Assembly: GCA_963675295.2 (NCBI GenBank)
Contig: CAXXKJ010000002.1
Coordinates: forward strand, 928,001 to 992,000
Direction: 5' to 3'
Source: a bacterium
GTDB taxonomy: Bacteria > Electryoneota > Electryoneia > Electryoneales > Electryoneaceae
DNA length: 64,000 bases
Below are positions 8,637 to 22,068 of this stretch, in pieces. The position numbers were made by a program, and so were the translations under genes. Numbering within the stretch: the first letter of the stretch is position 1; every line of letters starts with the position of its first letter. The notes under the pieces were generated by a model. The model did no database searches. It was not told the DNA's origin and saw nothing but the letters and a program-made list of their open reading frames with translations.

Positions 8637-9581
8637 TCAGCCCATGTGCTGCGCCTGTACCTGCTGCTCACCTTCTTCCTTCATCTTCAGATCGTCAGCG
8701 GACTGGAAGATCTGGTTGTAGATGCCTTCGAACAGCACGTACACCGTCGGCTCGTTGGCATACTTGACGAAGTAGCGGCGTTCGTTGTTCGGATCGAGGT
8801 AGAAGCTGAGGTCGAGACGGCTGCCGTTGTCGATGCTGATCTTGACCGTGTTGTCCGGCTTGTCGAAGTCGATGGAGGCGTATTCCTCCTCGGTCGGGAA
8901 GGCCGAGGTCCGCAACCGAGCGATCTGCGACTGCAGGCGTGTCGCGGCGGCGTCGTCGACCGGCGTAACCTCACCCTTGACGGTGAATGTCCACGCGCCG
9001 TCATTACGTGCGAGGTTCCACTCGTCGGTTTCAATCCCGACGACCTGGTGCTGCTGGTATGGGAACATCTCCTTGTCGCGCCAGTTCTCGACATTCCGGC
9101 TCAACTGCATCTTGTAGGTGCCGTTGATGAGGTACACGTTCGGCTTGTCCGCGTAGCGCGCGTAGCTCTGGCGGTAGGATTCGGCCGCCTTGCCGAGCAC
9201 GACGCTGCTAACCTTCTCACCCTGACGGATGGTGAGGGAGACGCCGGCGGTGTCGAGTTCGAACTCGGGCCAGCGGTCCTGCTTGCTGGTTACCTCGGAT
9301 TCGATCCGCATCTCGCCCAGTTTTTCGAGCAACTGGGAGACGTACCGCCGGTTGGCGCGGTAGTTGATCGGGTTGGTGATGTCCCACGACCCGTCATCGC
9401 GATGGGTCAGGGTAATTGTCGAACCGCCGTTCATGATTTCCAGTTCGGAAATCTTCGTGGTGTCGACATCAACGAGGTAGTTTTCCTCGGCTGTGGGCAC
9501 ACTGGACTGGTCCATCAGGACGAAAATCACCCAGAGGACGAGGACCACACCAACGAGGATGAGTAGCTGTTTCATCTTCAT
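8637..9581 (-). CDS. DUF4340-like membrane-anchored protein
   Basis: N-terminal TM segment; W.ITNP...A, YAR....VYLI, L......WRDK pattern; last gene of the Gld-like ABC operon. Confidence 0.75.
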   Translation of the reverse strand: MKMKQLLILVGVVLVLWVIFVLMDQSSVPTAEENYLVDVDTTKISELEIMNGGSTITLTHRDDGSWDITNPINYRANRRYVSQLLEKLGEMRIESEVTSKQDRWPEFELDTAGVSLTIRQGEKVSSVVLGKAAESYRQSYARYADKPNVYLINGTYKMQLSRNVENWRDKEMFPYQQHQVVGIETDEWNLARNDGAWTFTVKGEVTPVDDAAATRLQSQIARLRTSAFPTEEEYASIDFDKPDNTVKISIDNGSRLDLSFYLDPNNERRYFVKYANEPTVYVLFEGIYNQIFQSADDLKMKEEGEQQVQAQHMG

Positions 9582-11185
9582 CCGTTCAGCTCCTCCGAGT
9601 AGCGGCGGTTCCGCCGGATCTGCCAGTAGACGATGCCGAGCAGAATGGCGAGCAGCGGCGGCGCGAACCAGTTGACGTATTTCCAGACCTGCTTCTGCGC
9701 GGTGCTGATTTCCTTCAGCGTGCGCATGGTGAATTCACGGCCACGCAGCGCGATCAGGTCGGTGTCGCCGGCGAGCCAGTCGATGGCGTTGAGCAGCATG
9801 TAGACGTTCGCCGGGTTGGTCAGGTAACCGTCCTGAATGAAGCGGCCGTCACCCATAACGAACATGCGTGTGCCGTCCGGCGCGGTCATGCCGCTGCCGA
9901 CCATGTCCACCGACCCTTCGTCCGTTTCCGTGCCGGCGAATGCAGACTGGAACGGTCCTTCCAGCATCGCGCCAAGCACGACGTGTTCACGGGTGAACAG
10001 GTCGTCCTGCCATTCCTGCGTCGCGTTGATCGTGAACGTGCCCGCCTGCACCAGCGTCCGCGGACCGGAATACATCACCGGGGTCAGGTTGACGTTCTTC
10101 TCGGCGGCATAGGTGGTGTCAACGCTCGACGGGAAGAAGAGGCTCAGCATGTCGATGTTCTCGACGACGATCGCGTTGTCGTTGAACGTGTTCACGTTCG
10201 GGAAGAACGGGTACTTGATGGTGTTCTGAATGGTGAAGAAGCCGCGCCGTTCCTGCACGTTGATCATCGACGAATTGAGGTCGGCGACGAGGTTCGGGTT
10301 GACGACGAAGCCGTAGTTGCGTGTCATCTGATCGAGGCCGAGGCGGTACGCTGTCGCGGTCCCGTTCTGCAGGTCGGCATTGACCGTGGAGAGCAACCAG
10401 GCGACGGAACCACCGTCCATGATGTACTGGTCGATCTTCATCTGGTCTTCTTCGGGGATCGCCTCGGTCGGCGCGACAACCATCAGCACGTCGATGTTGT
10501 CCGGAACGCCCGGCGCGTCGGTCAGGTTGACATTTTCGATCCCGTAGTTGCTCTGCAGCACGTTGGCAAATTGCGAGATACTGCCCGCCTGGGCGCTCAT
10601 GCCCGGCTGCTGCTGTTGCGTCGGATCAGGCTCACCGTGTCCCTGCAGGAAGCCGACGGTCTGCGACTGCTGGTTGGTCAGCCGCTTGATCAGCGAGGTG
10701 ATGTTGTACTCGAGACCGGCCGCGCCCTGCAGCGTCGGGATGGTTTCCTGGCGGTCTTCGTAGAGGAAGACGGCGCCGAGATAGACCTTCTTCAGCTGCA
10801 GTTCATCCTTCTCCCAGACATTTTCCTGGAAGGGTGGGATGCGGTAGTTCTGCGCTTCCTGCTCGAGGGCTTCGTCATTGCCCGGGTCGATGAACTCGTA
10901 GCGGAACTTGCCGCCACCGTACGCCCGATAGCCGGACAGCAGGTCGTTGAGGAACCGTTTGGTATCGTTCAGCTGCGGCGACAGGTTTTCGCTGGCGAAA
11001 ACCTTGACCGTCAGCGGTTCGTCGAGATTTTCCACCACCTGTTTCGAGGCGTCGGACAGGCTGAACAGCTTGTCTTCGGTGAGGTCGAGGCGCATGAAGC
11101 GCGTGTTGGCGATCAGGTTGATGAGGACGAGGATCGCCACCACGAGCAGAATGCCGACCGTGGTTTGAATCTTGGATGCTTTCAC
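9578..11185 (-). CDS. GldG-like ABC transporter auxiliary component
   Basis: RLDLTEDKLFSLS, FIDP, LEYNITSLI, GFLQGHGE, NAIDWL; N- and C-terminal TM segments. Confidence 0.85.
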   Translation of the reverse strand: MKASKIQTTVGILLVVAILVLINLIANTRFMRLDLTEDKLFSLSDASKQVVENLDEPLTVKVFASENLSPQLNDTKRFLNDLLSGYRAYGGGKFRYEFIDPGNDEALEQEAQNYRIPPFQENVWEKDELQLKKVYLGAVFLYEDRQETIPTLQGAAGLEYNITSLIKRLTNQQSQTVGFLQGHGEPDPTQQQQPGMSAQAGSISQFANVLQSNYGIENVNLTDAPGVPDNIDVLMVVAPTEAIPEEDQMKIDQYIMDGGSVAWLLSTVNADLQNGTATAYRLGLDQMTRNYGFVVNPNLVADLNSSMINVQERRGFFTIQNTIKYPFFPNVNTFNDNAIVVENIDMLSLFFPSSVDTTYAAEKNVNLTPVMYSGPRTLVQAGTFTINATQEWQDDLFTREHVVLGAMLEGPFQSAFAGTETDEGSVDMVGSGMTAPDGTRMFVMGDGRFIQDGYLTNPANVYMLLNAIDWLAGDTDLIALRGREFTMRTLKEISTAQKQVWKYVNWFAPPLLAILLGIVYWQIRRNRRYSEELNG

Positions 11186-11201
11186 GTTGCTTCGTCCTCC
11201 C

Positions 11202-11918
11202 CTACAGGAATTTCCGCTGGATCATCGCGCGGGACGCGAGCAGCAGCGAAATAAAAATTAAACTGAGGAAATAGATGACATCCCGGCTGTCGATCACACC
11301 ACGCGCGATGTTCTGGAAGTGGTAGGTCGAGCTCAGGTACTGGATCACGTCCGCCACCGGCGGCGGGATCACAATCGCCGCGAACACTAGAATCGCCAGC
11401 ACGGCACACAGCGCGAAGCTGAGGATGAAGGCGACGATCTGGTTTTCCGTAAGCGCAGATCCGAGCAGGCTGACCGCGAGGTACGCTCCGCCCAGCAGCA
11501 GCAGTCCGACATAGCCGGCGACGATACCGCCAACCTGGGCGTCACCCAGCGTGATGATCGTGAACGGGTAGAAGAACGTGAACAGCAACGCGACCGCGTA
11601 CAGGCTGAACGCGGCGAGGAATTTGCCGAAGATGACATCGAAATCGCGCACCGGCATGGTGACCAGCAGCTCGAGCGTGCCGCTCTTTCGTTCTTCGCTG
11701 ATCAGTCGCATCGCGATCGCGGGTGCGAAGACGACGAGCAGGAACGGCAGGATGTCGAAGATGCTGCGCATGTGCGCGAGGTTTTCCTTGAACAGGTTCA
11801 AGGTGAAGAACCAGCCGGTGATCAGCAGGAACACCGCCAGCACGATATAGGCTGAGGGGCTGGCGAAATAGCTGCGCATCTCACGGCGCCAGATAGCACT
11901 CACAACGGCCCAGCTCAT
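11202..11918 (-). CDS. GldF-like ABC-2 permease
   Basis: RREMRSYFASP, MRLISEERKSGTLELL.T.P, GKFLA, RGVIDSRDVIYF; start ATG 11918. Confidence 0.88.
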   Translation of the reverse strand: MSWAVVSAIWRREMRSYFASPSAYIVLAVFLLITGWFFTLNLFKENLAHMRSIFDILPFLLVVFAPAIAMRLISEERKSGTLELLVTMPVRDFDVIFGKFLAAFSLYAVALLFTFFYPFTIITLGDAQVGGIVAGYVGLLLLGGAYLAVSLLGSALTENQIVAFILSFALCAVLAILVFAAIVIPPPVADVIQYLSSTYHFQNIARGVIDSRDVIYFLSLIFISLLLASRAMIQRKFL

Positions 11919-12883
11919 GCCGCAGCCTCCCCGGCCATGTTGGCCGTCGCATCGGTTCGTGTCAACGAACGGAAGATGTTTTCGAGCGATTCCACCTTGC
12001 GCGTCATGCCGAGCATCGTCCAACCCTGCGAAACGCAGAGGCGGAAGATGTCGCCGCGCGGGTCGGTGCCCGGTTCGGTGGAAATCTGCAGGCTGACCAC
12101 ATTCGGTTCCGGATCGTCCAGCCGTTCGAGCGATTCAACACCGGCGAGCGCGTTGATCTTCGCGAAATCGTCCGGGTTGATGCCGTGCAACTGCAGGTAG
12201 ATGACCGGCTTACCCTGGAAGCGGTGCTGCAATTCGTCCGGGGTGCCGTCCGCGACCAGCTTGCCCTTGTTGATGATGACAACACGGTCGCAGGTTGCCT
12301 GCACTTCCGGCAGGATGTGGGTGGAGAGGATGACGGTGCGCTCTTTCCCGATCGTCTTGATCAGTTCGCGGATTTCCACGATCTGGTTCGGGTCGAGACC
12401 GATGGTCGGTTCGTCAAGGATCAGCACCTTGGGCTCATGCAACATCGCCTGAGCGAGGCCGACACGTTGCCGGTAGCCCTTCGACAGCTTGCTGATGCTC
12501 TGGTCGAGCCGGTCTGCGAGGCCGGTGACGTCGACCATCTTCTTGATCCGCGCCTTCTGCTCGTTAGCAGGAATCCGGCGTACCTCGGCGACATGCTTGA
12601 GGTACTCGTAGACGGTCATGTCGAGATACAGCGGCGTGGTTTCGGGCAGGTAGCCGATCATCTCGCGTGTGACCAGCGATTCCTCGACGACGTCATGTCC
12701 GTCAATGGTAATCTTGCCGGCATTGGGCGGATAGTACCCGGTAATCACCTTCATGGTGGTAGATTTACCGGCGCCGTTTGGCCCGAGGAAGCCGAGAATC
12801 TCGCCGCGCGCGACATCAAAGCTGATGTCGTCCACCGCGGGAAAGTTCCCGTACAACTTCTTCAGGTTTTCAATGTGAATCAT
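11915..12883 (-). CDS. GldA-like ABC ATP-binding protein
   Basis: GPNGAGKST, LSKGYRQRVGLA, LILDEPT.GLDP; start ATG 12883 (MIHIENLKK). Confidence 0.92.
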   Translation of the reverse strand: MIHIENLKKLYGNFPAVDDISFDVARGEILGFLGPNGAGKSTTMKVITGYYPPNAGKITIDGHDVVEESLVTREMIGYLPETTPLYLDMTVYEYLKHVAEVRRIPANEQKARIKKMVDVTGLADRLDQSISKLSKGYRQRVGLAQAMLHEPKVLILDEPTIGLDPNQIVEIRELIKTIGKERTVILSTHILPEVQATCDRVVIINKGKLVADGTPDELQHRFQGKPVIYLQLHGINPDDFAKINALAGVESLERLDDPEPNVVSLQISTEPGTDPRGDIFRLCVSQGWTMLGMTRKVESLENIFRSLTRTDATANMAGEAAA

Positions 12884-13336
12884 CCGCGTTTCCCCTCCAG
12901 AATTCTTCCGTGGGTTGATTGGTATCTGAAACTGTGGAAAAGCCTTGGTTTTCCAACCCCCTTGCGATGGGCAAGGATACGACTTGTACGTCGTATGAAC
13001 AAGTTCAGCAACGGCTGTCTCGCACAAACTGGTGCCACTCCGGTTTGTCGCCGCTGTAGAATTTCGTCTGTCAAGTGTCTGTCTCGTCGGGCGTGATGCT
13101 GGCGGGGCGCAACGCGGAACCGTGACGTTTGCCTCCCTCAGACGCCAGAACCGTGTGTTGACACATGTGTATGTACGTGGCTTATCGCGGTGAGTTCCCG
13201 GCGCTCCGGGAGACGCTTGTTTATGTTGCCACCTGCTTTTTATGTGAAATGTCTTGCACACTTTTTCAATTACAAAAATACCCGATTAGAGAATCATGTC
13301 GAGCCATGCAGGTCTGAAGGATACAAAGGAGGCGGT

Positions 13337-14287
13337 ATGAGGTCGGACATGATAGTTCCAAGACAGCTAAGAGAGGTTAATTATCCCGAATATTTTGAGG
13401 ACGGGTATCGTATTCTATTTTGCGAAAATACTGAACTTCTGTTGTGGCACTTTCAAAATCTAATTCAGCCAGATCCGATTGCACCGAGGATCATATACAG
13501 GGGACAGGCCAAATCTGAGTGGCAACTTATAGCATCGCTATTCAGAAAAACAATAAACACATCCATCAAAGATATTACTGACATTAGAATCCGTCGCGGC
13601 AAAGATATTGCTAAATGGTTGATAAGGTTGTACAAGATTGAAGAAGAATTAGTTGATAGATACAGATGGGTGTTAAATCAAGCAGGTATAAGTATTCCAT
13701 TTGCCATAGCAGACTATCTTAACCAAGAATATGATAGTATAGAAGAAAGTGACCTGACATATTGGCAGTCTATAGACAGTTTTGAGCTACAATTTTACGC
13801 TTTGGCTCAACATAATGGAATACCTACCAGATTATTAGATTGGACTTATAATCCACTAGTAGCAGCATATTTTGCAGCATCAACCACCATATCTGAATAT
13901 AAACTAAAAAGAAACATGAAAAATTATATTGCGACGGAAACTAAGAATATACCTAATTTTTCTATTTTAGCATTATTTACGGATAATGTAGATAAAACGA
14001 CTTTTGGAACCGATTATAAAAAGAAAATTGATGTTATAGAATGTTCATATACTGATAATTTATATTTATCAGCACAAAAAGGAGTATTTACATATACTAT
14101 TCCTGAATATATGCCTATGAACAAAATATTAGATGATAATGTAATTACTAAGTTTGATATTCCCATAACTGAGGCGTTTCGGTTGCTACGTGTACTATCG
14201 TCATATGGAATAAACGGATCTACTGTTTATCCAGACTATTCAGGTGCAATTAAGCAAATGAAAGAAAGAATGGTGTATCAATGGTAA
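13337..14287 (+). CDS. FRG-domain protein (AT-rich insert)
   Basis: YRGQ...W.L..SLFR, AQHNGIPTRLLDWT.NPLVA.YFA, AQKGVF; AAGGAGG RBS before ATG 13337. Confidence 0.85.
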   Translation: MRSDMIVPRQLREVNYPEYFEDGYRILFCENTELLLWHFQNLIQPDPIAPRIIYRGQAKSEWQLIASLFRKTINTSIKDITDIRIRRGKDIAKWLIRLYKIEEELVDRYRWVLNQAGISIPFAIADYLNQEYDSIEESDLTYWQSIDSFELQFYALAQHNGIPTRLLDWTYNPLVAAYFAASTTISEYKLKRNMKNYIATETKNIPNFSILALFTDNVDKTTFGTDYKKKIDVIECSYTDNLYLSAQKGVFTYTIPEYMPMNKILDDNVITKFDIPITEAFRLLRVLSSYGINGSTVYPDYSGAIKQMKERMVYQW

Positions 14288-14334: not shown

Positions 14335-15333
14335 TTATAATCGTGCGATCAACCTGACCTGATCCACAATCTCGCACCTGGCTGTGCCTGAGCAGGACAG
14401 TGTTGATCCGTCAACATTCACAGGGAATGGACGTCCGTCCGCGGGTTTGATTTCGAGACGTTTCTTGATTGAATAGGCCTCGAACCCCCATCGCTCCGGA
14501 GCGTGTTGAATGCTGGAATCCCACGCCTTTTTGATCTGCGTTGCCATGTTGAAGATGCCGATATCGCGGATGCCGAACAGGTAGATCTCGCCGGAGCCGA
14601 GTGGTTTGCCTTGTGCGAACGGCAGGTTCGGCCCGAGGTCCCCATTGACCAGGATCAGCGCCTGGTAGCGGCCGGAGATCCTGGTTTCGCCATCAATCCG
14701 GAAGTGCCACAGTCGGGTGCCGGACGCGAACCGGCCAAAAAGGGTTTTCACCGTGGCGAGGCTCATGCCGACGAAAAACGGTCCGAGGTCGCCGAACAGT
14801 TGGCTCAGCACACCTTTGTAGTACTTGATGAACCGGTTCTCGGTGAAGTAGGGCACCTCACCGAAAATTTCCAGACCGCCGTAGCCAAGCATGCGTTTCA
14901 TGGTGGTGTTTGGGCCGGACGATGCTACCTCGATGACATCGCAGGGAATGTGTGTATCGTTGCGAATCGCTTCGGCGAACACACGGATCGCGTCCTCGAT
15001 CTCGTCGGGCATGTTCAGCACTTTACCCAGCAGGTCGGCGGAACCTTTCCGCAGGAAGCCGATTCGCAGATCTGACTTTTCGGCGTTGGCGTCGAGGCAG
15101 CCTTCGACGACGGCGTTAAATGTGCCCGAACCACCCGCCGAAATGATCCAGCGTACCCCGGCGTTGACCTGCTCGGTGGCTTGTTGCTTTGCGGCGGCGT
15201 GGCTGTCCTCACTGAACAGAGTGACGTTGCTGAAGCCGTGTTCCTCAAACAGTGGGACGATGCGTTTCACCTTGCCCCAGTCCTGAATCGATCCGGAGAT
15301 GGTGGTGGCGATGACGGCGATTGGATCAGTCAT
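14335..15333 (-). CDS. Divergent soluble diacylglycerol/lipid kinase family protein (DAGKc fold)
   Basis: ISAGGSGTFNAVVEG (canonical GGDGT), GSADL (canonical GTxND), C-terminal NVDG; start ATG 15333 overlaps the upstream stop. Confidence 0.7.
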   Translation of the reverse strand: MTDPIAVIATTISGSIQDWGKVKRIVPLFEEHGFSNVTLFSEDSHAAAKQQATEQVNAGVRWIISAGGSGTFNAVVEGCLDANAEKSDLRIGFLRKGSADLLGKVLNMPDEIEDAIRVFAEAIRNDTHIPCDVIEVASSGPNTTMKRMLGYGGLEIFGEVPYFTENRFIKYYKGVLSQLFGDLGPFFVGMSLATVKTLFGRFASGTRLWHFRIDGETRISGRYQALILVNGDLGPNLPFAQGKPLGSGEIYLFGIRDIGIFNMATQIKKAWDSSIQHAPERWGFEAYSIKKRLEIKPADGRPFPVNVDGSTLSCSGTARCEIVDQVRLIARL

Positions 15334-16783
15334 GGTCCGGGTCTCCGGCTGAGCTGGAGCGAACAGCCTGCATGGCGTGTTCGACAACGGTTTCGAGGGG
15401 AGCGTTTCCATTTATGACAGCAGTGCTGATGTCAAGATGCGATCCGAGACAGGCAAGCACACGCAGGTACGATTCACGCAGGCGCGTGAGTTTCTCGACG
15501 TTTTCATGCACCTGCATCTCTTCGCCACGGCTGGCGATGCGTTCACATGCGGTTGCGGGATCTACATCGATCAACAAAATGGTTTCCGGCAGCACCATCC
15601 GGTTCAGCTTCAGCAGCCAGAAGGCTTTCAACTCGGGGTATTCGCTGAACAGCGGGTCGTGCGGACCAGCTTGCTGATCGTTCCCGGTCAAGATGTCTAT
15701 CAGTCGGGCGATGGTTGTTTCATCCGGTGGATCATCACGGTACAACGCGACCCAGGCGAGCAGGTTGAGCAGAGGCGAACCGTCCATGACAATGTGGTCG
15801 GGCGTGTACCAGCGGCGGATTTCGTGGAACAACTGGTTGCGTAGCAGCAGTTCGGTCAGCTTCGGAATCTTGTACAGCTTGAGCGATTTTGCATTCTTGG
15901 CGGCACGATTGATGGCTTCGCGAAAGACATTGGTTCCAAGCGGTTGCAGGGGACGATAGAGTGAGTTGTTGTAGAACTGCAGGGTATCGCTGATGAGGCA
16001 CACGCTCTGGGCAGCGGAAAGTGTCTCGGCGATTGATCTGGAAACGGTACTCTTTCCCGAACCGTCGATTCCGAGAACCGCGATGGTTTGTGCCGCGGCT
16101 TCTTTTTTGCCACGTCGCCGCTGGTAGGACTTGGAGGTCGCCTGTTCCAGATCGCGGAGTGCGGCTTCCAGGTGCTGGGTGATATCGCGGTGCCCTCCAA
16201 CGACGAGTTGCGGGGGACCAACGGCGACAAAATTGGTTAGCGGCAGCATGATCGCCGTCGCCTTGGGCAGAGCTCGTTCCGGGCCTTTCAGGAATACCGG
16301 CACAACGGGAATCGACTTGTACTGGACAACCAGGCGTCCAATGCCACTGCGAAAATGGACGAGTTCTCCGGGCTTGCCGCGTGTTCCCTCAGGAAAAATG
16401 ATCAAGCTGTGCCCGGCCTCCAGCAACTGCTTGAACTCGTCAAACGGGTCGGTCCCACGAGTCGCGGTACCCCGTTCGATCCAGATCGGCTGGTAGAGGA
16501 ATTCAACAGAACGGAACAACCATTTGTAGCGGGCGAAGTACGTGCGTTCTGCCACGGCGTGCGTTCGATCCAGCTGCGGCAGGGTCAGCAGGTTGAACAG
16601 CAGGATGATATCCAGATGGCTGTTGTGGTTGGCAATCAGGATGAACTGGTCGTGTCCGGCCAGATGCTCCCGACCTCGGACATACACACCGAAGAGCAGC
16701 TTCGCCAATGGACGCAAAACGAGGAGATGGATCATCCTGCGCAGGGCACGATGTGCCTTGCCATGTTCAGGCTCGCCTCTCAT
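15326..16783 (-). CDS. Fusion of a PlsC-type lysophospholipid acyltransferase and a thymidylate-kinase-like P-loop domain
   Basis: NHNSHLD and IFPEGTRG in the N-half; IAVLGIDGSGKST, MDG and PETILLIDVDPATACERIASRG...E.L.RLRESY in the C-half. Confidence 0.8.
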   Translation of the reverse strand: MRGEPEHGKAHRALRRMIHLLVLRPLAKLLFGVYVRGREHLAGHDQFILIANHNSHLDIILLFNLLTLPQLDRTHAVAERTYFARYKWLFRSVEFLYQPIWIERGTATRGTDPFDEFKQLLEAGHSLIIFPEGTRGKPGELVHFRSGIGRLVVQYKSIPVVPVFLKGPERALPKATAIMLPLTNFVAVGPPQLVVGGHRDITQHLEAALRDLEQATSKSYQRRRGKKEAAAQTIAVLGIDGSGKSTVSRSIAETLSAAQSVCLISDTLQFYNNSLYRPLQPLGTNVFREAINRAAKNAKSLKLYKIPKLTELLLRNQLFHEIRRWYTPDHIVMDGSPLLNLLAWVALYRDDPPDETTIARLIDILTGNDQQAGPHDPLFSEYPELKAFWLLKLNRMVLPETILLIDVDPATACERIASRGEEMQVHENVEKLTRLRESYLRVLACLGSHLDISTAVINGNAPLETVVEHAMQAVRSSSAGDPDHD

Positions 16784-17640
16784 CCGAGGAAGTACCGGAG
16801 ATAATGGAAGGTCACCGGCGCCGCGTAGAAGAAGGACCGCAGGTTATCGAGCACCTGTCCCTGGGCCGGAATGAAGGGATCGTCCGCGCCGACGAGATCG
16901 AGTTTGATGTAGCGTCCGGTCAAACGGCCAATCATGGTCAGCATTGGAATCAGGCAGGCGAGAATGATCGAATGATGGAGCGGGATGCCGGTCCATGGCA
17001 TCAAGGCAAGGGCCAAACCGATCGTAATCGGCAGGGGAATCACGTAGATCAGAACCAGCAGTCCAAAGGTGACCCGCCTTCCCCGCCGCATGAGTACGGA
17101 CACCGCATCGCACAATGCCACTAATAGAATCAGCAACATTGGCTGCCAGATCGATACCAGCAACAGGTAGCCGATGTGCGCAATGCAGAAGACGTAGAGA
17201 AACAAGCCGAAGTCGATTGCTCCGATGGAAAAGATCATCCCCCGTGCTTCGCGTCCGCCCATCGCAACAAACATCGGGACCAGCAGGAAGCCATACACCG
17301 GCACCGCGATAATGAACATGCCATACCATTCATCCAGGATGAAGTAGTACTGGAAGGGTATCAGCAGAAACGCGATCCAGATGGCGATGCGATCCTGCGG
17401 TCGGATATCAATCAGCGAGAAGTATTCGCGCAGGGCGAAAAAGGACAGGAGTGCCAGCGTGATCAGGGCGAGGGTCAGTAGGTCAAACTCGGCGAACAGG
17501 ATGGAGAGAAGCAGGAAAAAGGTGTAGTTGACGTACGATCTGCCGGGGATTTCCCTGCCACGCAGGACCAGCACGGTTCTGAGTGCGGTCAGCACTGCGA
17601 ACAGGGCGACAACAACAATCAGGGTAATCCGGGCAGACAT
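16780..17640 (-). CDS. Divergent phosphatidate cytidylyltransferase family (CdsA/YnbB-like) membrane protein
   Basis: LSFFALREY, QYY.....WYG.F.I..PVY.FL, IP..G..LD...S....AP.TFHY. Confidence 0.7.
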   Translation of the reverse strand: MSARITLIVVVALFAVLTALRTVLVLRGREIPGRSYVNYTFFLLLSILFAEFDLLTLALITLALLSFFALREYFSLIDIRPQDRIAIWIAFLLIPFQYYFILDEWYGMFIIAVPVYGFLLVPMFVAMGGREARGMIFSIGAIDFGLFLYVFCIAHIGYLLLVSIWQPMLLILLVALCDAVSVLMRRGRRVTFGLLVLIYVIPLPITIGLALALMPWTGIPLHHSIILACLIPMLTMIGRLTGRYIKLDLVGADDPFIPAQGQVLDNLRSFFYAAPVTFHYLRYFLG

Positions 17641-17861
17641 CTTTCCTCCCCCCCAGGTTGCTGAAAGATGATCGGTTGGCGTGCTTCGAAATATACGACG
17701 GCTGCCAACTGGAAAGGTGATTCATTTCAGTAAGATCGGTTACAGAAGGTGGTTTCCCGGAAATCCTGTTAGGTTAAGGCCGTCAGACGGTATGCTGAGT
17801 TTAAAGGCGAAGTACTTCCAACCCTCTTGTTCGTCGAGTTCCAGTCCCCCATCTTTGCGGC

Positions 17862-18839
17862 ATGGCGACTTTAACCGATCCAGTTTTGCTCCACCTGTGT
17901 GACCAGCTCAATCGTTTTGCGGATGAGCGTGGCTTCACACTTGGGCTGGAGCCTGTTCAATATGGCGTGAAACTGACCCTCAGCGATCCGAATCTTCCAG
18001 ACGACAAGGGCAAACCCGCGACCGCGCGTGGCGTATTGTACCACAGCGTGAAGAAGAAACGGGTCAGCTGGGTGTCGGAAGGCAAGGCGGACCCGGTGCT
18101 CGGGCCAATGCTGAACGAGCGTGTCCAGGCGTTGGTTGGCGCACGGGACCAGAAGGCGGCGGCGAAGAATCCGTCCATTGGCGCGGTGGAGAAGGGGCTG
18201 AAGAGTTGGATCGGCACCGACGAAACGGGCAAGGGAGATCTGTTCGGCCCGTTAATCGTTGGCGGCTTTGTCGCGGACCAGGCGATTGCGAAAGAGTTGA
18301 TCGCGATGGGCGTGCGTGACTCGAAGGAGTTGACCCGTCCCCAGATCGAACGGCTGGCCTCGATGATCCGCAAGCAGTGGCCGGACCGCTGCCATGTGGT
18401 GATGATCTCGCCGAAACGCTACAATGAGATGTACGACGGTTTCGCGCGCCGGGGTGGGATCAACGGTCTGCTTGGCTGGGGGCACGCGACCGCGATCAAG
18501 TCAGCGCTGGAGGGGAAGTATCCACTCGATGGCGCCGTGGTCGATAAATTCGGTGGAGAGCATCGGATCACGCCGTACTTGAAAGGCGCGGATGTGTCCC
18601 TGACCTTACGGTCGAAGGCGGAGTCGAATCCGGCGGTCGCGGCGGGGGCGATTCTCGCGCGGGCGAAGTTCGAGTACGCGTTGGATGATATGGAAAAGCC
18701 GCTCGGGTTTCGTCCGCATCCCGGTGCGAACGGCCCGGCGATGAAGGATTTGAAACGTCTGGCGAAGGAAAAACCGTCCGAGCTGGCTATGTATGTGAAA
18801 ATGCACTTCCGTCCGGTTCAGGCGCTGGCGGGGTTGTAG
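17862..18839 (+). CDS. rnhC: Ribonuclease HIII
   Basis: WIGTDETGKGDLFGPL, GVRDSK.LT, PKRYNEMY, VDKF, KAE...AVAAGAILAR; N-terminal extension. Confidence 0.85.
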   Translation: MATLTDPVLLHLCDQLNRFADERGFTLGLEPVQYGVKLTLSDPNLPDDKGKPATARGVLYHSVKKKRVSWVSEGKADPVLGPMLNERVQALVGARDQKAAAKNPSIGAVEKGLKSWIGTDETGKGDLFGPLIVGGFVADQAIAKELIAMGVRDSKELTRPQIERLASMIRKQWPDRCHVVMISPKRYNEMYDGFARRGGINGLLGWGHATAIKSALEGKYPLDGAVVDKFGGEHRITPYLKGADVSLTLRSKAESNPAVAAGAILARAKFEYALDDMEKPLGFRPHPGANGPAMKDLKRLAKEKPSELAMYVKMHFRPVQALAGL

Positions 18840-18886
18840 ATTGACAATGTGTCCGTGTTGTTTGAGCAAGTCGGGTGCTGAATCCC

Positions 18887-18914
18887 GGGGACACTTTGTC
18901 CCCAAAGTGTCCCC
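18887..18914. repeat. GGGGACAC-type hairpin
   Basis: GGGGACACTTTG-TCCC-CAAAGTGTCCCC, perfect 12-bp stem. Confidence 0.75.
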
Positions 18915-18930
18915 ACACTTGACGCAGCAC

Positions 18931-18989
18931 GAGAGACGAAAGACCAGAGACGAAAGACTGAAGTCCGCAGACCAGCGACGAGAGACGAC
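18931..18989 (+). repeat. Degenerate heptamer tandem repeat (NRRAGAC)
   Basis: GAGAGAC GAAAGAC CAGAGAC GAAAGAC TGAAGTC CGCAGAC CAGCGAC GAGAGAC. Confidence 0.75.
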
Positions 18990-18996
18990 CGAAGAG

Positions 18997-20130
18997 ATGC
19001 ACGTATTCTGGGTGACAGGTGAGAGTTCAGGCGACCGTCACGCGGCGCACCTGATCCGTGAGCTGAAACGGCTGCGGCCGGAGTGGACGCACGGCGGGAT
19101 GGGTGGCGAGGCGATGCGTCGTGAGGGCGTGACCCTCACCGCCGACCTCAAGGAAGCGGCGTTGATGGGCCTGACCGAGGTCATCCGTCACCTGCCACGC
19201 CTGTTCCGGTTGCGCAACCGGCTGATCGACGCGATTGTCGACAGCGGCGCGCAGTTGGTCGTGCTGGTCGATTTTCCCGACTTCAACATGGGTGTCGCCC
19301 GCAGCCTGCGTGTCCGGCTCGGACGTCAGATCCCGATCCTGTACTATGTCAGCCCCCAGGTGTGGGCATGGCGCCGTGGACGCATCAAGACCATCGCGAA
19401 GTTGGTGGACGCGATGGCGGTGTTGTTCCCGTTTGAGGTGGATGTCTACCGTCCGCACGGGCTTGAGACGGTATTCTTCGGCCATCCGCTGGTCGGTGAA
19501 GTGAAGCCGTCCGCGCCGCTGCCGGAGTTGCGGAAACAGTTCGGCCTGCTGGGCGATGAACAGGCGGTGGCGATACTGCCGGGCAGCCGCGAGCAGGAGG
19601 TCCGGCGTCACCTGCCGGTGCAGCTGGCTGCGGTGAAACGGTTGCGCAGCCGGTTGACCGAACCGGTCAAGGTACTGCTCGCGCAGGCGAACACCGTCGA
19701 CCGGCAGCTGCTGGAACAGTTGGCGGCGGGCATTCCGGACGTGACCATTGTCGACAACGCGCGCGATGCGCTCGCTGCGTCCCGGGTCGGCCTGGTCAAG
19801 TCGGGCACGTCCACGATCGAGGCGCTGCTGATCGGCACGCCGTACGTGGTGATGTACATCGTCAGTCCGTTGACCTATCGCATCGCGAAACTGCTGATTC
19901 GCGGTGTGAAGTATATCGCGATGGTGAATGTGCTGGCGAACCGTGAGATTGTGCCGGAACACATCCAGGATGACGCCAACCCGCGCCGGCTGGCGCAGGA
20001 TCTCGAACGCCTCTGGGACAGCGAGGACCGTGACAAGATGACGCAGCGGCTGAAGGACTTGTCCTCATCCCTTGGCGAACCTGGCAGCACCGAGCGGCTG
20101 GCCGAGTGGATGGTGGAACGGTTCGGGTAG
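18997..20130 (+). CDS. lpxB: Lipid-A-disaccharide synthase
   Basis: GESSGD, VDFPDFN, YYVSPQVWAWRRGR, GHPL, LPGSR..E, KSGT.T.E; start ATG 18997. Confidence 0.95.
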   Translation: MHVFWVTGESSGDRHAAHLIRELKRLRPEWTHGGMGGEAMRREGVTLTADLKEAALMGLTEVIRHLPRLFRLRNRLIDAIVDSGAQLVVLVDFPDFNMGVARSLRVRLGRQIPILYYVSPQVWAWRRGRIKTIAKLVDAMAVLFPFEVDVYRPHGLETVFFGHPLVGEVKPSAPLPELRKQFGLLGDEQAVAILPGSREQEVRRHLPVQLAAVKRLRSRLTEPVKVLLAQANTVDRQLLEQLAAGIPDVTIVDNARDALAASRVGLVKSGTSTIEALLIGTPYVVMYIVSPLTYRIAKLLIRGVKYIAMVNVLANREIVPEHIQDDANPRRLAQDLERLWDSEDRDKMTQRLKDLSSSLGEPGSTERLAEWMVERFG

Positions 20131-20292
20131 TGCGCAGCGGCTAAAACTTCCGCATCGGCCCCACCACTTCGAGAATTCCGGCTCATGTCTTCCTGAGATT
20201 ATTCGTTTGGTTCTCCCAACAAGCTGCCAATCCGTTCCATGTGCCCTATCTTTGCGATTGCTTTCCAGCACGTTAGCCAAGAGGGGGTTTTT

Positions 20293-22068
20293 ATGACACG
20301 CGTATTCACTGTGGTTCTGATTCTTCTCGCCATTGCTTCCACCGTGCCAGCCCAACCGCCAGATGTCCTTTGGACGACCATGGTTGACGATCCGGATGGA
20401 TCGCAGCAATTCGAGTCCGTGGTCCATGCGTCCGACGGGTCGATATTCGCATGGGGCCGTGACTATGTCGGGACCATCGATCCCGGCTACCTGTTCAAGT
20501 TTAACGGGGACGGCGAACTGCAGTGGTCGAGAACGTACGACGCGTTACCGCTGGTGCTGGAAGGTGGGACGATCATATCAGATGGCGCGGACGGTGTGTA
20601 TGTCTGCGGGGAAGCGTGGGGGCCGGACATCAAGCTGGCCCATCTGGATGCCAACGGTGACGCCATCTGGACAAGCCTGGACCCGAACTATGAACTGAGC
20701 GCCGATGTGGAAACGATGCTGCAGCTGGCGGACGGGGGCTTTGTAGTCGCCTGCGCGACCGACTCATCCTATTCCGGCCCGGATGGGGTGTCGTTGTCTT
20801 TCTTTGCTCCGGACGGCAACTATCAGCAGACGACCATGTATGATTTCGAAACCTCGTATCTGGATGTGAATTCGATCATCCAGTTACAGGATGAGACGCT
20901 GGTCGTCGGCGGCAGGAACGGGCATGATGACGAAGCGTTCGTGATGCGAGTGGAACCCGATGGCACCCTGCTCTGGCTAAATACCTGGTACTCCTGGCAA
21001 ACCGTCGAGATCAATGACCTCGTCGCGTTACCGGACGGCAACTTTGCCTTCTGCGGCCATTACGACGACAGCTGGGTTGGGGTGATGACGCCGGACGGCG
21101 AGATGGTGTGGGAACAACTCGGGACGCTGAGCGGGACCGCAGTGACGGTATCTCCCGCTGGCGGATTGATTTTCACGCTTGCGTCAACTGTCAAACACAC
21201 AGATGTGCATGGAAACCTGTTGTGGCAGGAATCAGTTGGCGGAATGCCGTATGATTCAAGATTCTACAGCGTTTGTGTGACGGAAGAGGCCGGGATCATC
21301 GTCGCCGGGGGATGTGGACTGGACGATCTGCTGATCGTGTCCCGGTTCGAGGATGAGACAATTCCGCAAATCAGCCTCACCCTGTATCCACAGAGCAGTA
21401 CAGTGATTCCGGCGTCCGGCGGAACGCTGGCATTTGCTGCGCAGGTGGAGTTGAATTACCCGGATCCAGTCGTTTGCCATGGTTGGACGCGGGTTCGGTT
21501 GCCGAACGGTGAGTCCATCGGTCCGCTGTTTCACAGCCCACTGAATCTGCATCCGGGCGAATCCTGGTTTGCCGGGGGAGCGTTGACTGTCCCCGCCTAC
21601 GCGCCTGAGGGGGCGTACGAGCTGGTTGGGATCCTCGGTTTCTATCCGAACCATCCGTTGATCGTTGATGAGCTGCCGTTCACGAAGGAGGCAGGCTGGG
21701 ATGTCACCCGACCGGTAGGACCGGATGATTTCTCCGGGTCCTTCCCCAACCGTGAACAGCCGCTGGGCAATCCAGGTTACGACGACCTGGCTGCCCTGCC
21801 CGACATACCTGTGCTGGGCGAGCTGTACCCGAACCCGACGAACGGGCGGTCGTCGCTGACGATCACGTTGCCGGAAGCAGGCATGTTGCGGGCGGAACTG
21901 TATGATGTCACCGGACGATTCGTGGCGACCGTGTTCGACGGGACGGTCTCCGCCGGAAACCAGATGATCGCGGTTGAGACCGATGGGCTCGCGTCGGGTA
22001 CGTACCTGTTGCGGGTCAGCGTACCGGGCCAGCTTGATCAGACACGGCGGCTGGTGTTGTTGAAGTAG
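20293..22068 (+). CDS. Secreted beta-propeller-like protein with T9SS type-A-like C-terminal domain
   Basis: Signal peptide; repeated ..dG...W motifs; IPASGG Ig-like domain; YPNPTN...LASGTYLLRV...RLVLLK. Confidence 0.8.
   Translation: MTRVFTVVLILLAIASTVPAQPPDVLWTTMVDDPDGSQQFESVVHASDGSIFAWGRDYVGTIDPGYLFKFNGDGELQWSRTYDALPLVLEGGTIISDGADGVYVCGEAWGPDIKLAHLDANGDAIWTSLDPNYELSADVETMLQLADGGFVVACATDSSYSGPDGVSLSFFAPDGNYQQTTMYDFETSYLDVNSIIQLQDETLVVGGRNGHDDEAFVMRVEPDGTLLWLNTWYSWQTVEINDLVALPDGNFAFCGHYDDSWVGVMTPDGEMVWEQLGTLSGTAVTVSPAGGLIFTLASTVKHTDVHGNLLWQESVGGMPYDSRFYSVCVTEEAGIIVAGGCGLDDLLIVSRFEDETIPQISLTLYPQSSTVIPASGGTLAFAAQVELNYPDPVVCHGWTRVRLPNGESIGPLFHSPLNLHPGESWFAGGALTVPAYAPEGAYELVGILGFYPNHPLIVDELPFTKEAGWDVTRPVGPDDFSGSFPNREQPLGNPGYDDLAALPDIPVLGELYPNPTNGRSSLTITLPEAGMLRAELYDVTGRFVATVFDGTVSAGNQMIAVETDGLASGTYLLRVSVPGQLDQTRRLVLLK

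Follow-up and report, generated by a model that had tools for sequence, protein, structure and literature searches.

Introduction

The described proteins closest to the system reported here, a three-gene lipid cassette in the genome of a bacterium of the phylum Electryoneota, are the CTP:phosphatidate cytidylyltransferase CdsA and its E. coli paralogue YnbB. In TmCdsA, D219 and D249 coordinate a Mg2+/K+ centre, and single alanine mutants of D219, D249, K167, K226, D144 and D246 each lose at least 98% of the activity (PMC4083444). YnbB raises the levels of MPIase, a glycolipid based on GlcNAc-PP-DAG; what its N-terminal half does is termed "totally unknown" (PMC6362211).

The cassette lies in a stretch of 64,000 nt (NCBI GenBank assembly GCA_963675295.2, contig CAXXKJ010000002.1, positions 928,001 to 992,000 of the forward strand), hereafter called the window. 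It encodes a YnbB-like membrane protein, an acyltransferase fused to a P-loop kinase domain, and a protein of the diacylglycerol kinase (DAGK) fold; a preliminary description, made by a model from the letters of the window, had drawn attention to their altered active-site motifs. We show here that the three genes form one conserved accessory membrane-lipid module under purifying selection, and we weigh what this module might do.

Results

The Cassette Consists of Three Overlapping Genes

Three co-directional, overlapping open reading frames (ORFs) occupy the minus strand at 16780-17640 (286 aa), 15326-16783 (485 aa) and 14335-15411 (358 aa, taken as the longest ORF). Since the homologues of the third protein begin at the position of Met27 of that longest ORF, the extent of its gene is set at 14335-15333 (332 aa), with an overlap of 8 nt rather than 86; judged by these homologues, the true start is most likely at 15333 and not at 15411. 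The gene layout given in the preliminary description needed no other correction. The features are as follows.

17641-17654, minus strand: purine-rich Shine-Dalgarno-like stretch directly 5' of the ATG at 17640, as read from the sequence
16780-17640, minus strand: YnbB-lineage CdsA-like integral membrane protein, 286 aa, without the cytidylyltransferase metal dyad (PF01148, 30.8 bits)
16139-16783, minus strand: PlsC/LPLAT-type acyltransferase domain of the fusion, residues 1-215 (PF01553, E 2e-22)
15326-16093, minus strand: TMK/dNK-fold P-loop kinase domain of the fusion, residues ~231-485, with DGS for DRY and a helical insertion (PF02223, E 2e-11)
14335-15333, minus strand: DAGK/SphK-fold lipid-kinase-like protein, 332 aa, with GGSGT and GSADL (PF00781, 46.6 bits)

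At the first junction, the stop of the CdsA-like gene and the start of the fusion gene share ATGA (16780-16783); at the second, the stop of the fusion gene (15326-15328) overlaps the ATG at 15333 as ATGACTGA. The gene caller behind the homologue set (entry P0001) chose Met17 as the start of the fusion (469 aa), and if this start is correct, the overlap between the first two genes vanishes. A simple consensus scan found no sigma-70-like promoter on the minus strand and, within the cassette, no internal promoter or terminator beyond what is expected by chance; going by the overlaps alone, the three genes are probably co-transcribed. None of the three proteins matched an NCBIfam model at its curated cut-off.

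Gene Order and Deviant Motifs Are Conserved

Among 7999 candidates scored, 664 homologues of the fusion were found at E<=1e-3, and the best 120 of these 664 are all ~456-498 aa in length and carry both PF01553 and PF02223. Where a source name is given, it reads only "1-acyl-sn-glycerol-3-phosphate acyltransferase", to which one IMG name adds "thymidylate kinase". In species-representative genomes, a pattern scan with an alignment query yielded 573 relatives, the best 80 of which were retained as loci. The full-length fusion occurs in 28 of the 80 loci, and in 24 of these 28 the CdsA-like gene, the fusion gene and the DAGK-like gene follow each other in this order, the other four loci being cut by contig ends. 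Clustering of all ORFs from 29 loci revealed no fourth conserved gene. The cassette loci are labelled Zixibacteria, Gemmatimonadota, Bacteroidota, Aminicenantes, Thermoanaerobaculia, Planctomycetaceae and Kiritimatiellales, amongst others. The Pfam matches and the constant order in the 24 complete loci thus bear out the earlier observation of a genuine acyltransferase-TMK-like kinase fusion within a single three-gene unit.

In the phylum of the window itself, the kinase domain was found in seven of 79 genomes (six of the 51 of good quality), including one of three other genomes of the same genus, so the cassette is accessory and patchy; in all five loci examined from this phylum, the full cassette is present in the same order. 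It is an extra set, since the genome has, at other places, canonical genes for CdsA (194 bits), TMK (134.5 bits) and a DAGK_cat protein (82.9 bits). Comparison with a genome of the same genus gave ratios of non-synonymous to synonymous substitution rates (dN/dS) of 0.10, 0.10 and 0.11 for the three genes, which are rough values because dS (1.6-2.2) is near saturation.

All the motifs quoted in the preliminary description are indeed present in the window: NHNSHLD, FPEGTRG, GIDGSGKST, IVMDGSP, SAGGSGTFN, RKGSADL and IPAQGQVLDNLRS, together with the lack of SPxKTxEG. That description had allowed that homologues might retain canonical motifs and that this copy might be under relaxed selection; the dN/dS values of about 0.10 indicate the opposite, and the homologues share both the deviant motifs and the gene order. 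The deviant motifs are fixed features of the family and not signs of decay.

The Membrane Protein Has Lost the Cytidylyltransferase Metal Site

The 286-aa membrane protein passes the cut-off of CTP_transf_1 (PF01148) with 30.8 bits against 24; on the same model, the housekeeping CdsA of the genome scores 194 bits and a canonical YnbB-like protein (locus L036) 234 bits. It aligns with E. coli YnbB at 26% identity over 276 aa (E 3e-12), the N-terminal half included, and an ALxEY motif is common to both. It carries IPAQGQVLDNLRS, and the SPxKTxEG block is missing, which leaves a gap of seven residues relative to canonical YnbB.

The positions of TmCdsA were placed via a family profile alignment to 4Q2G (E 5e-9), allowing for the offset of 20 residues due to the tag. 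The protein of the window has Arg in place of both D219 (R239) and D249 (R268), and the SPxKxxEG block that bears K167 is deleted; equivalents of D144 and D246 are present, and K226 is Lys. These changes extend to the family. Asp occurs at the D219 position in none of 26 cassette-type proteins, as against 43 of 47 YnbB-like proteins encoded beside a stand-alone acyltransferase, and the figures for Asp at the D249 position are the same (0/26, with Lys in 18, Arg in six, Glu in one and Ala in one; 43/47). The K226 equivalent is Lys in two of the 26 (Glu in 22) versus 46 of the 47. The D144 equivalent is kept in 23 of the 26 cassette-type proteins, the D246 equivalent in 12 and the acidic residue equivalent to that of KRD in 25. 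In the N-terminal half, E72, R80 and D83 are found in all 26 cassette-type proteins and in 45-46 of the 47 others.

Two otherwise canonical YnbB-like proteins (L083:5020-5946 and L097:3235-4281) have Asn at the position of D249, a residue that occurs there in three of the 47 proteins of the stand-alone-acyltransferase group. Such proteins are possible intermediates toward the re-wired form.

A phylogenetic tree was inferred from 66 of the 72 CdsA-like ORFs (six were dropped at <240 or >360 aa), the window protein and the protein of L097, with the CdsA of the genome as the outgroup. The cassette-type proteins, 25 of 25, group together with full support (SH-aLRT 100) as a single clade nested in YnbB-like sequences, and the stem that leads to it measures 2.75 changes per site; long branches meet near the node of this clade, by which its exact sister group is unsure.

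From these alignments, we conclude that the membrane protein has lost the predicted metal-site residues for CTP:phosphatidate cytidylyltransferase activity and has kept the YnbB-specific N-terminal half; by the same comparison with TmCdsA, a YnbB-derived protein of this kind should be unable to use the CdsA metal mechanism. As the metal site was lost, basic residues took its place and these were then conserved, the protein looks like a case of changed function rather than of erosion. The earlier suggestion of pseudo-enzyme subunits therefore holds for the CdsA-like protein with respect to cytidylyltransferase chemistry only, the dyad Asp residues and the K167 block being gone, and does not extend to the two kinases described below.

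The Cassette Belongs to a Branch of a Widespread ynb-Type Pathway

In the other 52 of the 80 loci, the match to the fusion is limited to the acyltransferase domain (33-42% identity). A CdsA-like gene lies directly upstream of the stand-alone acyltransferase gene in 47 of these 52 loci, which agrees with the statement in the preliminary description that ynbB-like genes pair with acyltransferases, and within the flanks examined, none of the 52 loci has a kinase or DAGK-like match. In those stand-alone-acyltransferase loci that were annotated, the CdsA-like gene is clearly of the canonical type (234 bits in L036), with a CDP-alcohol phosphatidyltransferase gene 5' of it. In Thiofilum (L036), the ynbB-like gene is followed by genes for a hydrolase/methyltransferase and a PAP2/dual-specificity phosphatase; this set is that of E. 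coli ynbA-ynbB-ynbC-ynbD with an acyltransferase gene inserted.

A Caldilineaceae metagenome-assembled genome (MAG) carries a gene of the PIG-L family (GlcNAc-PI de-N-acetylase) directly 3' of its ynbB-like/acyltransferase pair (L081:6768-7604). Such a neighbour is a hint that a lipid bearing GlcNAc is handled by some ynb-type pathways, which would agree with the link between YnbB and MPIase.

Taken together, gene content and phylogeny show a cassette that by all appearances descends from the widespread ynbB-acyltransferase gene pair of an orphan ynbABCD-type pathway. Two predicted ATP-kinase folds, the TMK/dNK-fold P-loop domain and the SphK/DgkB-fold kinase, were recruited in this ynbB branch alone amongst the loci compared.

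A profile of the kinase domain, searched against 1.84 billion representatives, retrieved 4039 proteins at E<=1e-3, of which 75 reached E<=1e-30. The proteins retrieved include two fusions of the kinase domain with the DAGK-like protein, P0160 (587 aa) and P0193 (631 aa), that display the same deviant motifs, including GGAGT; hhalign gave a probability of 100 for these fusions, with 39% identity over 328 columns. P0128 was left out of the fusion counts as it resembles a frameshifted read-through of two genes. In three Omnitrophota loci, a gene for an AMP-binding/ACP/acyltransferase (FAAL-ACP-acyltransferase) fusion is located just upstream of the P0160-type gene. One of these three loci, L097, additionally contains ynbA (CDP-OH_P_transf), a near-canonical ynbB-like gene (D249 to Asn) and a Methyltransf_20 gene. 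From the kinase-DAGK fusions of Omnitrophota, it follows that the acyltransferase, the P-loop kinase and the DAGK-fold kinase keep company with one another in two or more different fusion arrangements; from the gene content of L097, that the three catalytic domains can sit inside a fuller ynb-type operon.

P0204, P0206, P0217, P0237 and P0240 represent a more distant family in which the same kinase domain is N-terminal to a region of ~320 residues. This C-terminal region is not DAGK-like and gave no Pfam match save for a weak methyltransferase match in P0204.

The Acyltransferase-Kinase Fusion

The acyltransferase domain spans residues 33-165 of the 485-aa fusion by its PF01553 match (79.8 bits, E 2e-22), and its motifs I, II and III are intact (NHNSHLD, R104 and FPEGTRG). 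On TIGR00530, it scores 52 bits, under the cut-off of 103. The kinase domain matches Thymidylate_kin (PF02223) with 44.4 bits (E 2e-11) and scores 41 bits on TIGR00041, for which the cut-off is 83.25; it has GIDGSGKST as its P-loop and IVMDGSP where TMK has DRY. Invariant amongst 24 aligned fusions are NHNSHLD, R104, FPEGxRG, GIDGSGKS, D334-G335 (in the place of DRY) and R415, R419, Q424, H426 and E427. In 26 aligned kinase domains (domain numbering), the GIDGSGKS P-loop, D112, G113 and the LID residues R193, R197, Q202, H204 and E205 are likewise without exception.

The AlphaFold2 model of the kinase domain has a predicted local distance difference test score (pLDDT) of 91.2. Its best Foldseek matches are TMK and deoxyadenosine kinase, with template modelling (TM) scores of 0.57 by query and up to 0.78 by target at 15-21% identity; the P-loop and the TMK-type LID align to 3HJN, and ~50 residues of helices are inserted. 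Where TMKs bind the NMP, the domain instead has a beta-hairpin and basic helices that are conserved (R66, K74, K86, R93), and the REPGGT-type NMP site has no counterpart here. In the ESM Atlas, the domain matches TMK/AAA-type clusters alone, with scores of <=0.90. No description of an acyltransferase-thymidylate-kinase fusion, or of a PF01553 + PF02223 architecture, was found in our literature searches, which agrees with the preliminary description, where the architecture was not recognised as a described one.

Two candidate roles were considered and set aside. A role in defence was dropped, as the cassette proteins had no specific PADLOC match, just a 36-bit VakA match of the P-loop domain. 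The notion that the P-loop domain is a fatty-acid kinase, making acyl-phosphate for the acyltransferase, was weakened by the Omnitrophota loci: these own an AMP-binding/ACP activation module besides the kinase, so that acyl activation is an unlikely task for the P-loop domain.

The DAGK-Like Protein

The third protein matches DAGK_cat (PF00781) with 46.6 bits (E 3e-12). NCBIfam lipid-kinase models all stay under their cut-offs, with a best score of 34.7 bits versus 293. Its motifs are SAGGSGTFN and RKGSADL, i.e., GGSGT for GGDGT and GSADL for GTxND, and the 28 aligned sequences show no difference in the blocks ISAGGSGTF and GFLRKGSADL; over the whole protein, the columns of an alignment across phyla have a mean identity of 62%. 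Foldseek with the AlphaFold2 model (pLDDT 84) gave SphK1 as the best match (E 2e-18, TM 0.71), then DgkB-type proteins (TM 0.65-0.67), YegS, AGK and, distantly, NAD kinases. Both domains of the SphK1/DgkB fold are retained, as is the C-terminal N306-x-D308-G309, which in our reading would be the counterpart of the C-terminal Asp-Gly of DgkB. With this Asp-Gly, the P-loop and the LID arginines invariant, a pseudo-enzyme status does not follow for the two kinases, contrary to what had been considered.

Discussion

Proposed Function

Very probably, the cassette is a functional accessory lipid module that does not serve a cytidylyltransferase pathway. For its chemistry, the explanation we favour overall, albeit tentatively, is a module for the ATP-driven acylation and phosphorylation of a glycerolipid, derived from a re-wired ynbB branch, in which ATP-dependent phosphorylation has, as we infer, come in the place of CTP activation. 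Such a line would operate at the cytoplasmic face of the inner membrane. The DAGK-fold enzyme would phosphorylate the hydroxyl of a lipid alcohol such as mono- or diacylglycerol, the acyltransferase would convert the lyso-form into a phosphatidate-like lipid, and the re-wired YnbB-like protein might bind or hand on the anionic head group via the Lys or Arg residues situated where CdsA holds Mg2+/K+. TMK-fold domains normally turn a phosphomonoester into a diphosphate, and the TMK-fold domain of the cassette could add a second phosphate to give a diacylglycerol-pyrophosphate-like lipid.

The specific route ending in a lipid diphosphate, for instance, diacylglycerol pyrophosphate (DGPP), comes from chemical reasoning on the folds and is possible, if on the unlikely side. 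Bolder still, and improbable on what we have, is the proposal that the TMK-fold domain is a phosphatidate kinase and that the cassette makes DGPP or a related lipid diphosphate, which the YnbB-like protein binds or transfers as a CTP-independent "activated phosphatidyl" donor. If the domain is such a kinase and the YnbB-like protein takes its product, a liponucleotide pathway would have been converted to an ATP/lipid-diphosphate pathway. Phosphatidate kinase activity was reportedly purified from plants in 1993, and no gene is known to have been assigned to it or cloned.

Several observations weigh against the explanation we favour. In TMK, the Arg of the DRY motif contacts the acceptor phosphate; it is missing in all 26 kinase domains, which suits a hydroxyl as the acceptor no less, and perhaps more, than a phosphomonoester. 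In SphK1 and in NAD kinases, the Asp of GGDGT is catalytic; it is Ser in the DAGK-like protein and Ala in the kinase-DAGK fusions, so that this protein may take another phosphate donor or not be a kinase at all. DAGK_cat enzymes are related to PFK. Within the PFK superfamily, the use of ATP or PPi is set by GGDG/GGDD variation (PMC12203962), and by analogy, the changed GGSGT loop may mean a different phosphate donor and not necessarily inactivity. Moreover, two Omnitrophota loci (L098 and L099) hold the acyltransferase, kinase and DAGK-like domains with no adjacent CdsA-like gene, by which the membrane protein is not always needed nearby. Our literature searches found no bacterial role for diacylglycerol pyrophosphate and, on phosphatidate kinase, led to nothing but the enzyme references of 1993. 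Finally, the taxon labels of MAGs behind the spread over many phyla can be binning errors.

Alternative Explanations

A somewhat unlikely alternative is the salvage of lysolipids or fatty acids ending at phosphatidate, where the DAGK-fold enzyme would turn mono- or diacylglycerol into lysophosphatidate or phosphatidate, the acyltransferase would complete phosphatidate and the P-loop domain would act like a dNK on a lipid or head-group hydroxyl. The acyltransferase domain scores equally on the Aas-type and AGPAT models of NCBIfam (51.3 and 52.1 bits), the AMP-binding/ACP/acyltransferase fusion of the Omnitrophota relatives is Aas-like, and the kinase domain matches dNK and TMK alike, strand 2 ending in an Asp that is invariant in all 26 sequences and the DRY Arg being absent. 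The genome, however, already owns its canonical DAGK_cat gene and other PlsC-type genes, and salvage leaves unexplained why the CTP site is lost in the YnbB-like protein exactly where the kinases appear.

It is quite unlikely that the kinases supply head groups, i.e., that they make a phosphorylated soluble alcohol or a nucleotide for a phosphatidyl-transfer step like that of ynbA-type pathways, and that the membrane protein is still a nucleotidyl or phosphatidyl transferase with a re-built site. The kinase-DAGK fusion of L097 does sit with ynbA and a near-canonical ynbB-like gene, and the conservation of the acidic residues equivalent to D144 and to that of KRD (23/26 and 25/26) would suit such a re-built site. 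In eukaryotic Cds, Asp219 is moreover often Gly (PMC4083444); the same source presents D249 as highly conserved in Cds, with 98% of the activity removed by its loss. Against this alternative, furthermore, a CDP-alcohol phosphatidyltransferase gene occurs in none of the 24 complete cassette loci, and the predicted structure of the DAGK-like protein most resembles lipid kinases, which have a helical pocket for the lipid, and not kinases of soluble substrates.

Decidedly unlikely is a partly non-catalytic complex in which the YnbB-like and perhaps the DAGK-like protein would be a scaffold or lipid sensor, the sole chemistry being acyl transfer regulated by ATP binding. The membrane protein of the window does lack three of the six residues essential in TmCdsA, GGDGT is altered in 28 of 28 DAGK-like sequences, and the sequence matches of the kinase domain include NDUFA10, a dNK-fold subunit of complex I, where it is non-catalytic. 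Yet the invariant nucleotide-binding and LID residues and the strong conservation of the whole DAGK-like protein, at a mean column identity of 62%, are more in keeping with active sites than with scaffolds, and the replacements in the membrane protein are patterned (Lys or Arg at D249, Glu at K226) rather than random.

That the genes are decaying paralogues of cdsA, plsC, tmk and dgk under relaxed selection, with no function of their own, is hardly credible: the Pfam and NCBIfam scores are weak and all NCBIfam matches lie under the curated cut-offs, but all three dN/dS values are close to 0.10, the deviant motifs do not vary over 24-28 sequences of diverse lineages, the genes keep their order and coupling, and no reading frame is broken.

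Significance

An ATP-driven module for acylation and phosphorylation, as favoured here, leads to a testable hypothesis on its chemistry, in which a lipid alcohol would become first a phosphate and then a diphosphate and would also be acylated. The orphan lipid pathway of the ynbABCD type is widespread in bacteria, and the cassette branch shows that it can be rebuilt: the patterned loss of the cytidylyltransferase site coincides, every time, with the gain of two ATP-kinase folds. The canonical and the cassette-type YnbB proteins provide a natural "before and after" set for the role of the conserved N-terminal half. The family is large, with hundreds of protein clusters at 90% identity, and occurs in Zixibacteria, Latescibacteria, Gemmatimonadota, Acidobacteriota, Omnitrophota and other poorly known phyla, whose membrane lipids serve as environmental markers. 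Should the P-loop domain prove to be a lipid-phosphate kinase, this would be a new substrate class for the TMK/dNK fold.

Genomic Neighbourhood

The GC content of the cassette (0.56-0.58) is close to the window mean (0.58) and thus gives no hint of a recent transfer, and the idea of the cassette as a recent foreign acquisition was dropped; the contrast in composition lies in a neighbouring gene. This gene, at 13190-14287 (plus strand), encodes an FRG-domain protein, has a GC content of 0.35 and of 0.30 at third codon positions versus 0.58 for the window, and matches PDC-S15, a candidate single-gene defence family (E 4e-32). Wedged between the lipid cassette and an ABC transporter operon, the gene has the look of an island acquired recently.

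On the other side of the cassette, at 17862-20130 (plus strand), a divergently transcribed RNase HIII-like gene (TIGR00716, 118.9 bits, cut-off 161) has a long N-terminal extension, and only 2 nt separate its stop from the start of an LpxB gene (299 bits). A set of ABC-2 type transporter genes (ABC_tran, ABC2_membrane and ABC_transp_aux with DUF7088) and a protein ending in a Por_Secre_tail sorting domain are encoded at 9578-13261 (minus strand) and 20239-22068 (plus strand). The ABC-2 set, the Por_Secre_tail protein and LpxB point to a diderm host of the FCB kind.

Comparison with Known Systems

The membrane protein of the window resembles E. coli YnbB in that the two align end to end and that it nests among YnbB-like proteins; unlike YnbB, it has no cytidylyltransferase dyad and no K167 block, and two kinase folds have been added beside it. 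The cassette lacks ynbA, ynbC and ynbD of E. coli ynbABCD, which, by its annotation, holds no acyltransferase gene. Nor is ynbA adjacent, the upstream neighbour being the divergent RNase HIII gene. With TmCdsA (PDB 4Q2E/4Q2G), the membrane protein shares the Pfam family, an alignable C-terminal domain and the equivalents of D144 and D246; it differs by Arg for D219 and D249 and by the deletion of the SPxKxxEG block, and 22 of the 26 family members have Glu for K226.

The kinase domain has the fold, the GxDGxGKS P-loop and the TMK-like LID of the TMK and dNK enzymes (3HJN, 4S2E, 8PUU), from which it is set apart by ~60 extra residues, DGS for DRY and its fusion to an acyltransferase or a DAGK-like protein. 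Similarly, the DAGK-like protein has the two-domain fold and the C-terminal Asp-Gly of SphK1 (3VZB), DgkB (2QV7), YegS and AGK, and its N-terminal domain aligns to that of DgkB (E 5e-6); unlike these proteins, it has GGSGT (GGAGT in the fusions) for GGDGT, GSADL for GTxND, and the family blocks YTENRFIKYYKG and GDLGPF.

As in Aas, the acyl-ACP synthetase-lysophospholipid acyltransferase fusion, a PlsC-type acyltransferase is joined to another domain that uses ATP. The best NCBIfam matches of the acyltransferase domain include Aas models, and the fusion carried by the Omnitrophota relatives has an Aas-like make-up; in the cassette, unlike in Aas, the fusion partner is a P-loop kinase.

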